From positions 1-31,439 of IMG/VR virus record IMGVR_UViG_3300043447_000134: DNA of 31,439 nt; one strand, given 5' to 3'. Each line of letters opens with the position of its first letter. Positions within the stretch are counted from its first letter, which is position 1. The position numbers and the translations under genes are program-made. Below, one piece after another: positions 4,920 through 18,248 of this stretch. The notes under the pieces are model-generated. The model was not told the origin of the DNA. It saw nothing but the letters and a program-made list of their open reading frames with translations, and ran no database searches. This stretch comes from a virus. Its lineage: Duplodnaviria > Caudoviricetes.

Positions 4920-4993
4920 GCACCAGTAGCCAAGTTGGTGAAGGCATCAGTCTTATATACTGAAGATCGTAGGTTCAAGTCCTACCTGGTGTA
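4920..4993 (+). tRNA. tRNA-Ile(UAU)
   Basis: Acceptor GCACCAG/CTGGTGT, anticodon arm TCAGT-CTTATAT-ACTGA, GGTTCAAGTCC; no encoded CCA. Confidence 0.9.
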
Positions 4994-4997
4994 CTAC

Positions 4998-5078
4998 CCG
5001 TGATATGCTCCAAGGTGGGGCAGGGGACTGTAAATCCCCCGTCATTTGACATGGTTGGTTCAATTCCAACATCACGGA
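4998..5078 (+). tRNA. tRNA-Tyr(GUA), C1:G72
   Basis: Acceptor CCGTGAT/ATCACGG, GGGGA-CTGTAAA-TCCCC, long variable arm, GGTTCAATTCC. Confidence 0.85.
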
Positions 5079-5082
5079 CTAA

Positions 5083-5155
5083 ACCCATATAGCCCAGCGG
5101 TAGAGGCAGTAGACTTAAAATCTACAAAGCGTTGGTTCAAATCCAACTATGGGTA
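5083..5155 (+). tRNA. tRNA-Leu(UAA), short variable loop
   Basis: ACCCATA/TATGGGT, GTAGA-CTTAAAA-TCTAC. Confidence 0.9.
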
Positions 5156-5159
5156 CTCA

Positions 5160-5235
5160 GCCTTCGTAGCTCAGGGGATAGAGCGACGGACTTCTAATCC
5201 GCAGGTCGTAGGTTCAATTCCTACCGAGGGCACCA
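5160..5235 (+). tRNA. tRNA-Arg(UCU)
   Basis: GCCTTCG/CGAGGGC, CGGA-CTTCTAA-TCCG, encoded CCA. Confidence 0.92.
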
Positions 5236-15892: not shown

Positions 15893-15986
15893 AAAATAAG
15901 AGCCCCACACAGGTAATCCAGGCACGATGGCCACGGTCATAAGTAAATGGGTAACTAAACCATCTCTAAGGTCCTGTGTGGGGACT
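15893..15986 (-). ncRNA. candidate stand-alone ~90-nt structured RNA
   Basis: Own TATAAT at 15993-15998; 11-bp closing stem CCCCACACAGG/CCUGUGUGGGG; inner stems; U-rich tail. Confidence 0.6.
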
Positions 15987-15998
15987 ATTTATATTATA

Positions 15999-16421
15999 CT
16001 ACTTGATTTTGATTGTCTTAGGCTTCTTCTCTTCTGGAATGTCACGCTTCACCACCACATAAAGCATGCCATCATTAAGATCGGCACTATCAACAAACAT
16101 ATATTCAGCAAGTGTAAAGGTACGTGTAAATTTACGTCCTGCGATACCCTTGTGAACATACTCTTCAACATCTTCTGGACGCTCACCCTTGATAGTAAGT
16201 ACTCCATCATGCTCTGTGATTTCAATAGAATCCTTGTTAAAGCCTGCTACTGCAAGCTCAACTACATAGGTATCCTCATCAACCTTGCGAACATTGTATG
16301 GAGGGAATCCAGACTGTTGATTTGTAGTATTTGTTAATCGGTTGAACATCTTGTCAAATCCGATAAAGAATGGATCATCAAATAGAGATGGTCCTGTTTT
16401 TGTATATGATACATAGTTCAT
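15999..16421 (-). CDS. small heat shock protein Hsp20 (IbpA-like)
   Basis: FPPYNV, ELAVAGF, HKGIAGRKFTRTFTL, DGML, PEEKKPKTIKI. Confidence 0.95.
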   Translation of the reverse strand: MNYVSYTKTGPSLFDDPFFIGFDKMFNRLTNTTNQQSGFPPYNVRKVDEDTYVVELAVAGFNKDSIEITEHDGVLTIKGERPEDVEEYVHKGIAGRKFTRTFTLAEYMFVDSADLNDGMLYVVVKRDIPEEKKPKTIKIK

Positions 16422-16489
16422 TTTTATTGCTCCTTTTCAGCGAGTTAAAGTATGTACCCCCATTTGGCAGGTACATATATATTATACCA
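16422..16489 (-). promoter_or_regulatory. hsp20 promoter and ROSE-like thermometer leader
   Basis: TGGTATAAT; 5' hairpin GUACC...GGUAC; CUCGCU-GAAA-AGGAG pairs the SD with a bulged G. Confidence 0.65.
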
Positions 16490-16494
16490 CTTTG

Positions 16495-16566
16495 CTCTCC
16501 CCCTAGGATTCAAACCTAGATTGCTGGTGCCAAAAACCAGAGTCCTGTCAATTGGACGAAGGGAGA
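16495..16566 (-). tRNA. tRNA-Gln(UUG)
   Basis: TCTCCCT/GGGGAGA, CTGGT-TTTTGGC-ACCAG, T-loop TTTGAAT. Confidence 0.85.
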
Positions 16567-16570
16567 TCAA

Positions 16571-16657
16571 TGAGCAGTTTACCTATTGCTAGGTGCTTCT
16601 TTTCTGCGACTCCCCGATGAAAGGGTGCAAATCCAATGCTGGTCATACTCAGGACCA
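16571..16657 (-). ncRNA. candidate pseudoknotted RNA between tRNA-Ser and tRNA-Gln
   Basis: UGGUC/GACCA stem with loop UGAGUA pairing 3' UGCUCA; ACCUA-GCAA-UAGGU GNRA hairpin. Confidence 0.7.
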
Positions 16658-16659
16658 AG

Positions 16660-16746
16660 CGGAAGAAGTAGGATTTGAACCTACGGTAGATTTTACTCTA
16701 CGGTCAGTTAGCAACCGACTGCAATAGACCACTCTGCCATTCTTCC
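16660..16746 (-). tRNA. tRNA-Ser(GCU)
   Basis: GGAAGAA/TTCTTCC, GTCGG-TTGCTAA-CTGAC, long variable arm, G73. Confidence 0.92.
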
Positions 16747-16748
16747 AA

Positions 16749-16874
16749 TGAGAACTCGGTTTATATTTCACCACTCCGTAAGGTCTGGTGCCAGTGCGTT
16801 CTCAACACTGTGCAGAAGTCTAGCTAGGGCCTTCTACAAATACTTGTTCATCCGTTAAGATAAACAGTGGTATT
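16749..16874 (-). ncRNA. candidate structured RNA between tRNA-Val and tRNA-Ser
   Basis: Two 8-bp hairpins plus CAGUGU/GCACUG stem whose loop UGAGAAC pairs 3' GUUCUCA. Confidence 0.6.
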
Positions 16875-16883
16875 GCCTTCCTG

Positions 16884-16955
16884 TAGGAGTAACAGGGTTT
16901 GAACCTGTGACATTCTGCGTGTAAAGCAGACGCTCTACCACTGAGCTATACTCCT
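16884..16955 (-). tRNA. tRNA-Val(UAC)
   Basis: AGGAGTA/TACTCCT, TCTGC-TTTACAC-GCAGA. Confidence 0.92.
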
Positions 16956-16959
16956 ATTT

Positions 16960-17132
16960 GTAAGCGAGATGTGACTAGCATCCCCTTACTGACTCTACAC
17001 TAAATATCCTACGAGTAGTAGCAACCATAAGCACTCTTGTCTTTGCGGTAAGGTTAGTACCGTATCCACCAAATCGGGTTTCGTTCCTACACCATAATGA
17101 CATATATGGTAACGAGTGTTAGTCACTACACT
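16960..17132 (-). ncRNA. candidate ~170-nt structured RNA between tRNA-Leu and tRNA-Val
   Basis: Terminal hairpins with complementary loops (UGACUA / UAGUCA), internal stems. Confidence 0.6.
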
Positions 17133-17133
17133 G

Positions 17134-17207
17134 TGCTTCTCACAGGACTTGAACCTGTAACACCCAGATCCTAAATCTGGTGCCTCTACCAATTGGGCTA
17201 GAGAAGC
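17134..17207 (-). tRNA. tRNA-Leu(UAG), short variable loop
   Basis: GCTTCTC/GAGAAGC, CCAGA-TTTAGGA-TCTGG. Confidence 0.9.
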
Positions 17208-17209
17208 AT

Positions 17210-17285
17210 TGGAGCGGAAGACGAGACTTGAACTCGCAACAGTCTGCTTGGAAGGCAGAAACTCTACCAATTGAGTTACTTCCGC
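17210..17285 (-). tRNA. tRNA-Gly(UCC)
   Basis: GCGGAAG/CTTCCGC, TCTGC-CTTCCAA-GCAGA, U73, CCA. Confidence 0.93.
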
Positions 17286-17286
17286 A

Positions 17287-17362
17287 TGGCATCTCCAACG
17301 GGGTTTGAACCCGTGTTGCCAGATTGAAAATCTGGAGTCCTAGGCCACTAGACGATGGAGAC
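17287..17362 (-). tRNA. tRNA-Glu(UUC)
   Basis: GTCTCCA/TGGAGAT, CCAGA-TTTTCAA-TCTGG, CCA. Confidence 0.92.
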
Positions 17363-17363
17363 T

Positions 17364-17439
17364 TGGCTGGTCTGGCAGGTCACGATCCTGCGACATTCGC
17401 ATTAACAGTGCGACGCTCTACCAACTGAGCTACAGACCA
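17364..17439 (-). tRNA. tRNA-Asn(GUU)
   Basis: TGGTCTG/CAGACCA, TCGCA-CTGTTAA-TGCGA, T-loop ATCGTGA, CCA. Confidence 0.9.
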
Positions 17440-17450
17440 TTGTGTACTCT

Positions 17451-18248
17451 TTATGGGAGTACTTGAACCACCTTGGTAGGTGTTCCAAAACTTAACGACT
17501 GTGCAGCGACTGCAACAGTAGCAGATGAAGTAGTTTGAGGAATCAAACCAAACACCTTAGACGTATAATTATACACTAGGTATGAAGCAACATAGTCTGT
17601 AGTTGCATCGTAAGCCTTTGATGAGATAATGTTGTTATTAGCATCATATCCTCCTACGCTTACAGATACGGTATCAGTAATACACGCTGGATAATCAATC
17701 TTAGTTCCACGAGTATTTCCTGTTGCTGCAAAGACTGAAATACCCTTTGACTTTAGTGTTGAGATTAATGTACGGATAGTTGTATCTGCAACTGCTACTC
17801 CTCCGTATGCAGCAGTATTTGTAACTGCTGGCGAGCATGGCTTGGTGCCATTAAAATATCGTGAAAATGATACAGCTCCAACCTTTGATGAATTTGCATC
17901 TACCCAACGCAATGCATCAATAAAGTTTCCAGCATTCATTTCTGCTACAGACTTTGCACTTGGAGTTGTTGATCGTAGCAAAATAATTGGCAATGCAGGG
18001 TTTTGCTTCTTTGCAACTTCTGCCATAGCATTTCCATGGTTGATAACGCTTGAAATGTCTGCACTCTTTGTAGCTACAACATCTGTACATGGTACATTTG
18101 CTAGAGTGATACAGGTAATGTTTGCTGCATTAACCTTTGAATCAAAGTATGAGTCAATGATTACCAAAGACTTTGTTTCGGCTGCTTGTGCTGGCTGAAC
18201 CAGTACTGCAAAAATTGCTAACGAAATAATTCCCACTGCTTTTTTCAT
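17451..18248 (-). CDS. secreted subtilisin-like (S8) peptidase homolog
   Basis: Signal peptide (AQA); IIDS, NHGNAM, AATGN, YPAC, TTSSAT. Confidence 0.7.
   Translation of the reverse strand: MKKAVGIISLAIFAVLVQPAQAAETKSLVIIDSYFDSKVNAANITCITLANVPCTDVVATKSADISSVINHGNAMAEVAKKQNPALPIILLRSTTPSAKSVAEMNAGNFIDALRWVDANSSKVGAVSFSRYFNGTKPCSPAVTNTAAYGGVAVADTTIRTLISTLKSKGISVFAATGNTRGTKIDYPACITDTVSVSVGGYDANNNIISSKAYDATTDYVASYLVYNYTSKVFGLIPQTTSSATVAVAAQSLSFGTPTKVVQVLP

Follow-up and report, generated by a model that had tools for sequence, protein, structure and literature searches.

Spacers of a phage tRNA array very probably hold conserved structured RNAs, which come, go and change slots among relatives

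The tRNA region of phage T4 gives rise to a pair of small RNAs named RNAC and RNAD, which have been validated by Northern analysis (PMC9697503) and whose role is described as unknown in the available part of PMC3014915. GOLLD and ROOL are phage RNAs that often lie near tRNA islands, again with roles described as unknown in the portion of PMC12286853 at hand; according to the same source, by Kretsch et al., symmetric kissing loops with palindrome switching support the dimer bridges of OLE and GOLLD. Another RNA, manA (RF01745), is regarded as a 5'-UTR riboswitch candidate (PMC2864571). In plant and other RNA viruses, coremin variants (xrRNA-C and xrRNA-WCC) resist the exonuclease Xrn1 and combine a GUC/GAC stem, an AAAC linker and a GAG-CUC pseudoknot (PMC10321173, PMC6546385). 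Insertions are tolerated at the 5' side of the coremin linker, and a downstream hairpin is required within ~1 nt, a 2-nt linker insertion being the only one tested in the available part of PMC6546385.

Within the window, by which we mean the whole stretch that was analysed (31,439 nt, IMG/VR record IMGVR_UViG_3300043447_000134), seven minus-strand tRNA genes are arranged as Asn-1-Glu-1-Gly-2-Leu-177-Val-136-Ser-92-Gln, with gaps given in nucleotides (Table 1). The tight packing of the first four genes and the three long spacers after Leu, Val and Ser are as an earlier note on this DNA had described them. We refer to the spacers as RNA A, B and C. Like RNAC and RNAD, they lie in a phage tRNA cluster; unlike in T4, several RNA families here swap between slots. 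A and B are real, new families in a modular arrangement, and fall within a known kind, the small RNAs of phage tRNA regions.

Table 1. Positions in the window of the tRNA genes, the spacer RNAs and their structural elements.
Feature	Position	Strand	Remark
tRNA-Asn(GUU)	17364..17439	-	CCA encoded
tRNA-Glu(UUC)	17287..17362	-	CCA encoded
tRNA-Gly(UCC)	17210..17285	-	CCA encoded
tRNA-Leu(UAG)	17133..17207	-	CCA not encoded
RNA A, spacer Leu/Val, 177 nt	16956..17132	-	uncatalogued family
A 5' hairpin	17115..17132	-	loop GUGACUA 17120-17126, predicted kiss with 3' hairpin loop
A internal hairpin loop UAACC	17052..17056	-	predicted pseudoknot with GGUUG 17022-17026
A invariant 16-nt core UGCUACUACUCGUAGG	17008..17023	-	partly search anchor
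A 3' terminal hairpin	16960..16989	-	loop UAGUCA 16972-16977; 9/11 pairs with double changes
tRNA-Val(UAC)	16883..16955	-	CCA not encoded
RNA B, spacer Val/Ser, 136 nt	16747..16882	-	uncatalogued family
B palindromic loop CUAGCUAG	16820..16827	-	in hairpin 16811-16838; predicted homodimer kissing site
B 3' pseudoknot	16749..16810	-	loop UGAGAAC 16798-16804 with GUUCUCA 16749-16755
tRNA-Ser(GCU)	16659..16746	-	CCA not encoded
RNA C, spacer Ser/Gln, 92 nt	16567..16658	-	coremin-like pseudoknot and two hairpins in long loop
C pseudoknot	hairpin 16641-16656, partner UGCUCA 16571-16576	-	two hairpins in long loop
C hairpin module X, conserved	16603..16631	-	starts mRNA leader in L593, L602, L489
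C GNRA hairpin	16581..16594	-	GCAA (GUAA in L005), just ahead of AAAC
tRNA-Gln(UUG)	16494..16566	-	CCA not encoded

The 31-kb record encodes a terminase large subunit, a DNA polymerase, a RecA-like recombinase, an endolysin and hsp20. Its terminase is closest to those of Streptomyces phages (53% identity), from which we infer an actinobacterial host. The sigma-70-like site closest upstream of the array lies ~1 kb away (18487-18459), and the promoter-like sites detected are not more numerous than in shuffles. By inspection, a promoter-like TG-TATAAT site for hsp20 lies directly 3' of tRNA-Gln. Neither ARAGORN nor Rfam called a tmRNA in the window.

How much can be read from a single sequence? 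Each spacer had been said to contain a hairpin loop complementary to its own 3' end. This applies to B (7 bp) and C (6 bp), where 1000 shuffles reach such a match in 2.6% and 8.3% of cases, respectively, which is modest when taken alone. The best loop-tail match of A is at chance level (76% of shuffles); its ends are instead predicted to meet in a loop-loop kiss, which was equalled in 0 of 1000 dinucleotide shuffles. In the window, the minimum free energy beats shuffled controls for B (z -2.25) and not for A (-0.42) or C (+0.18), the homolog medians being -0.8 (A) and +0.55 (B). The calculation leaves pseudoknots out, which makes this test uninformative here. Given the weakness of such single-sequence evidence, the case rests on homologs. 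Across these, covariation gives good support to the central proposal of the earlier note, that the spacers are conserved structured RNAs with paired-up ends, and we regard their folds as almost certainly real.

The idea of three RNAs locked alike by a loop holds for the paired-up ends and fails as a single common design: A has a kissing loop and multiple pseudoknots, B a palindromic loop and a 3' pseudoknot, and C a coremin-like pseudoknot. Likewise, a UGAG loop and a terminal CUCAUU do occur in both B and C of the window, where the spacers end 0 nt ahead of Ser and 2 nt ahead of Gln. They are not a signal shared across homologs, since a divergent B copy (L569) carries UGUCAGA/UCUGACU and a CAU or CAC lies within the last five bases in 36 of the 53 family spacers, all types counted. 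As to coding capacity, a 91-codon TTG open reading frame (16995-17270) overlaps two tRNAs and spacer A. Over the A core, however, stop-free stretches in the three frames vary among 15 homologs between 19-54, 9-45 and 4-35 codons, so that no long frame is conserved.

RNA A is represented by 15 distinct copies including that of the window, obtained from pattern scans and an hsp20 search (one metagenome scan returned 16 matches, 5 real and 11 due to chance). They are 174-187 nt long, 64-88% identical to the window copy and spread over seven tRNA-pair contexts, and each fills the gap between two tRNAs; without exception, the 5' end lies 0-1 nt behind a tRNA lacking an encoded CCA. In an alignment (A3) scored against a structure of 46 pairs, 92% of cells are paired and 17 of the 46 pairs show double changes. 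This structure was set by hand from these same sequences; none of 500 shuffles scored as high, although that control ignores relatedness, and slid controls paired at 28-49%. One copy (L239) has its 5' stem fully replaced with the loop kept. An anchored count finds the predicted closing contact, in which GUGACUA of the 5' loop pairs with UAGUCA of the 3' hairpin loop, intact in 13 of the 15 copies. Among the 15 copies, neither this kissing helix nor the two core helices show covariation. The internal pseudoknot changes from C-G to U-A in L243 and, read by eye, becomes UACUA/UAGUG in L239. Invariance of the 16-nt core is partly built in, as the core served as a search anchor; it may adopt two alternative folds, since its CUAC has a choice of two GUAG segments as partner. 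The contact between the two ends might act within a single molecule, closing it, or join several. Two internal hairpin loops, of GUGAA/GUCAU and YGAAA types in many copies, look T-loop-like by eye, with the second loop of the window copy deviating from this type.

Ten distinct copies of RNA B, 135-144 nt long, occupy five tRNA contexts. One pattern scan yielded 14 matches, comprising eight tRNA-flanked copies and six chance hits, and a covariance-model search of 147 sources added no further distinct copy. The predicted fold combines two hairpins, one extended and one capped by a palindromic loop, with an 8-nt leader ahead of them and a 3' pseudoknot whose long loop contains a fourth hairpin and UAAAC. 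The palindrome reads CUAGCUAG in seven copies, AUAGCUAG in two and CCUGCAGG in one. The last of these, L569, is 63% identical and was found through a tRNA-Gly scan rather than by B motifs. Its pseudoknot differs from UGAGAAC/GUUCUCA by four compensatory pairs, all kept paired, and its palindrome by two changed pairs, again with pairing kept; the odds of this by chance are 1/81 and 1/9, respectively, for a single lineage. B pairs were counted by anchors, as MAFFT misregisters the L569 pseudoknot loop. In contigs of two runs (X1 and X3), the first stem of the pseudoknot changes from A-U to U-A with the palindrome unchanged.

Might the palindrome serve a second molecule? One of its changed pairs encloses only 2 nt and therefore cannot form in cis. 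Predicted duplex energies of the loop 8-mers are -10.3 kcal/mol for the window, -14.3 for L569 and -2.2 for the mixed pair. Palindrome switching of the kind that backs the OLE and GOLLD bridges occurs in the B loop in one lineage (chance ~1/9). We lean towards the view that B homodimerises through its palindromic loop.

In RNA C, the loop UGAGUA pairs with UGCUCA. Among the loci, the whole RNA is found in the window and in L005 only; a further copy on a contig of run X3 has eight differences, all of which fit the fold: the first stem changes from G-C to A-U, the pseudoknot from U-G to C-G, and the rest are two wobble swaps in an inner hairpin and three linker changes. Our comparison with coremin drew on the available parts of PMC10321173, PMC6546385, PMC10520033 and PMC11702639. 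C has in common with xrRNA-C and xrRNA-WCC a GUC/GAC stem (GGUC/GACC in C) closed by a C-G pair, that is, 5' pyrimidine-3' purine, followed by the AAAC linker and a GAG-CUC pseudoknot. The pseudoknot between loop and linker is backed by covariation of the minimal motif described below and by the U-G to C-G variant. There are also differences. The loop after the 3-bp GUC/GAC core has 8 nt, CUGAGUAU, and fits neither the C-type consensus (YGAD/YGNNAD) nor that of the WCC type, a 4-nt loop starting with G. The second stem of C has 5-6 bp. In place of a ~10-nt linker and a close second hairpin, C has ~55 nt inserted; downstream of its pseudoknot strand there is only tRNA-Gln, 4 nt away, and no local hairpin. 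The setting, a DNA phage, differs as well. C may work like coremin by analogy, yet we do not file it as coremin because its loop size, its insert and the missing downstream hairpin disagree.

The shell of C is a motif of ~27 nt: GUC-CUGAGYAU-GAC, a few bases, AAAC and URCUC. It matches 125 GTDB stretches (~160 estimated), as well as phages of Synechococcus, Paracoccus and others, and no Rfam family matches its copies. When four loop bases are allowed to vary, full pairing is seen in 25 of 93 distinct matches, some of which are related; among the 78 non-consensus matches it is seen in 12, while 5000 shuffles averaged 1.6 and never exceeded 8. A position at transcription starts was considered as a general rule for the motif and rejected, a strict pattern finding it in 4 of 147 copies; a tRNA lies within 15 nt downstream of 1 of the 147. 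The motif is frequent in Saccharibacteria/Patescibacteria bins and in Bacillota (e.g. L398, L400, L416), sometimes with three copies within 2-4 kb (L425-L427, L476). It also stands directly ahead of a twister-P1-like match (L426:251-333, E 3e-6, below the gathering score) and of a DUF2800 RNA (L460:251-437), an arrangement compatible with a role in shielding a 3' end.

Among relatives, these RNAs come and go and turn up in different tRNA slots. The earlier note had pictured the array as a cassette, and its modularity is evident from changes of tRNA context, from gain and loss, and from manA in the same slots. Among 120 tRNA-Gly loci, drawn from ~570 in the collection and scored for nine spacer types that we labelled ourselves, 98 carry none, 17 one, four two and one three; the covariation tests cover types A-C. 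A directly adjoins Ser, Val-B being absent, in L005 as well as in X2 and X15 contigs; in an X2 contig, Ser is followed by Gln with C missing. The X2 and X15 layouts were read by hand at loose match ends. Three different spacer RNAs (E, D and B) follow one another at L569:391-1119, which amounts to the layout of the window with other cargo. Clustering of 88 distinct long spacers revealed more recurring non-coding types. They include types of 129 nt (D), 169 nt (E), 119 nt (G) and 82-131 nt (I), among others, and one of 61 nt (J) with a loop-tail knot and AAAC; the D, E and G loci gave no Rfam match at E<=2. Such spacers, recurring or single, lie at L024:1045-1173, L023:911-1079, L028:657-775, L586:980-1100, L531:1121-1181, L239:1051-1203, L591:907-1100 and L580:990-1100.

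Full-length manA lies exactly between tRNA genes in two relatives (L239:433-621, E 6e-12; L021:1169-1413, E 2e-9). It is a phage-associated structured RNA of ~190 nt in the same kind of slot, unlike the spacers of the window, which have no manA match. The placement suggests that manA, too, may be a released or free RNA rather than only a 5'-UTR element.

The three spacers match no Rfam family at the gathering score or at E<=10, and for homologs of A and B Rfam 15 returned only tRNA, plus manA in other slots. BLAST of A and B against 50,697 phage records gave no significant match, and BLAST of the whole array against cultured phages gave only tRNA or chance matches. A and B were also not found in sets of 3, 5 and 5 Actinobacteria genomes, which are too few to show absence. 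With 135-187 nt, A and B are far smaller than GOLLD (often >800 nt), ROOL and OLE, and differ from these also in having no Rfam match. The literature covered, which includes only a minority of subscription papers, describes neither A and B nor the phage motif; both RNAs could already be listed among the 10,006 candidates of a viral RNA catalogue (PMC10690425), of which parts were available.

How might such RNAs arise and act? RNase P generates the 5' ends of tRNAs, and for tRNAs that do not encode CCA the 3' cut is usually made by an endonuclease, for instance RNase Z. We envision that RNase P would cut at the 5' end of each downstream tRNA and, because the tRNAs ahead of the spacers lack an encoded CCA, that a 3' endonuclease of the RNase Z or RNase E type would cut behind each upstream one. 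Each freed spacer would then begin and end in paired structure or a few bases from it (B keeps an 8-nt 5' leader), and the pseudoknots and the kissing loop would tie up these new ends against 3' exonucleases and RNase J, an enzyme that Actinobacteria possess. Judged by standard tRNA processing, discrete and stable RNA species are probably released. Fifteen sequencing runs, all in the form of contigs, held small shares; contigs from two of the RNA runs reached into C and B at a depth of ~2 and showed no RNA ends, which is evidence neither way on expression.

We favour accessory, trans-acting RNAs because the spacers are dispensable, exchange slots and keep conserved surface loops. The scenario as a whole, a tRNA-punctuated precursor that releases accessory RNAs acting in trans, most likely as decoys binding protein or RNA, we hold to be evenly poised, and for the decoy or binding role itself the chances are even at best and perhaps somewhat lower. 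A bolder version appears doubtful to us, in which freshwater actinophages would maintain nine or more exchangeable RNAs on a plug-in platform of tRNA arrays as an anti-defence arsenal, with B a minimal RNA-only dimer, A closing or polymerising through its terminal kiss and C using a coremin block as the shell of its cargo.

The same structures might instead serve in cis, as stability or processing elements whose knots block RNase J or cap 3' ends, so that the remainder of the precursor is protected until the next tRNA matures and any released RNA is a by-product. We consider this unlikely for the array overall and most likely for C. The core of C shares its stem, linker and pseudoknot pairing with Xrn1-resistant coremin variants (PMC10321173, PMC6546385), its full-length form is confined to two locus copies, and its minimal motif recurs across GTDB, with 42 of 147 copies preceding a Shine-Dalgarno sequence and start codon within 70 nt. 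In L593, L602 and L489, module X begins 5-6 nt past a TATAAT and is followed by a minimal knot and a gene, thus forming a promoter-proximal mRNA leader; in the first two, the start of the leader's gene resembles by eye the nuclease gene of the window. Because relatives use its parts in an mRNA leader, we lean toward a cis stabilising role for C. RNase J scored above the cut-off in four of five motif-carrying genomes, including a 1.3-Mb freshwater Actinobacteria bin, and a small genome of this kind is a plausible host type. Yet a gammaproteobacterial bin carries the motif without RNase J, and the ~55-nt insert and lack of a local downstream hairpin sit poorly with the hairpin that coremin wants within ~1 nt. 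For the array at large, it also speaks against cis elements that 98 of 120 arrays do without any of them, and that A and B retain features irrelevant to nuclease blocking, namely a palindromic loop, an internal pseudoknot and an invariant core.

For A, and possibly B, catalysis or sensing is another option: a new ribozyme, cleaving itself or otherwise processing RNA, that would mature the adjacent tRNA end lacking CCA, or else a ligand-binding aptamer that senses a metabolite. The invariant core of A, its two further knots and its strict start behind a CCA-less tRNA would suit such a role, and theta ribozymes, likewise phage RNAs that start at a tRNA 3' end, provide a precedent (PMC10879173). 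However, part of that invariance stems from the search pattern, CCA-less tRNAs of these arrays mostly have no structured RNA next to them, and no ribozyme family of Rfam matches. The theta geometry (G1 <=5 nt from the tRNA 3' end, 7-bp P1, nested P3) occurs nowhere in B or C and once in A, there without the loop core; an HDV-like YYCHCG-type L3 core, sought with a relaxed descriptor, is absent from A, B and C. We therefore regard a ribozyme or aptamer as improbable. Selfish or vestigial inserts, which would persist since tRNA processing removes them harmlessly, could account for the patchy presence and the free movement between slots. They are a very slim prospect, as compensatory changes at 63-67% identity imply selection on shape and the array is without a mobility gene.

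Whether they act as accessory RNAs in trans or otherwise, the spacers offer short RNAs (92-177 nt) whose folds are backed by covariation and which nature provides in variants that have, lack or swap them, so that release, nuclease resistance and dimerisation become testable in vitro without the host. B, if its dimer is true, would be a natural RNA that self-assembles at very small size, and C allows a direct test of whether coremin-type exonuclease blocks act against bacterial RNase J.

The surroundings of the array hold further elements. A second tRNA cluster on the plus strand (4920-5235; Ile-UAU, Tyr, Leu-UAA, Arg-UCU) directly follows groES and is tightly packed with 3-nt gaps, long spacers being absent. 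A few bases ahead of tRNA-Asn, a small hairpin, GUACUC/GAGUAC (17444-17462, minus strand), spans the stop codon of the upstream 265-aa gene. The 5' leader of hsp20 (16416-16476, minus strand) contains a hairpin with a weak match to the ROSE_3 thermometer (E 0.11, below the gathering score). Behind hsp20 lies a candidate structured RNA of ~85 nt (15900-15990, minus strand) with its own TATAAT, an 11-bp closing stem and z -3.3; an alignment suggested kinship with spacer family I, which we do not claim, as nhmmer found none. An X1 contig runs from this RNA straight into the Gln end of the array, hsp20 being absent (joint 15985-16478).
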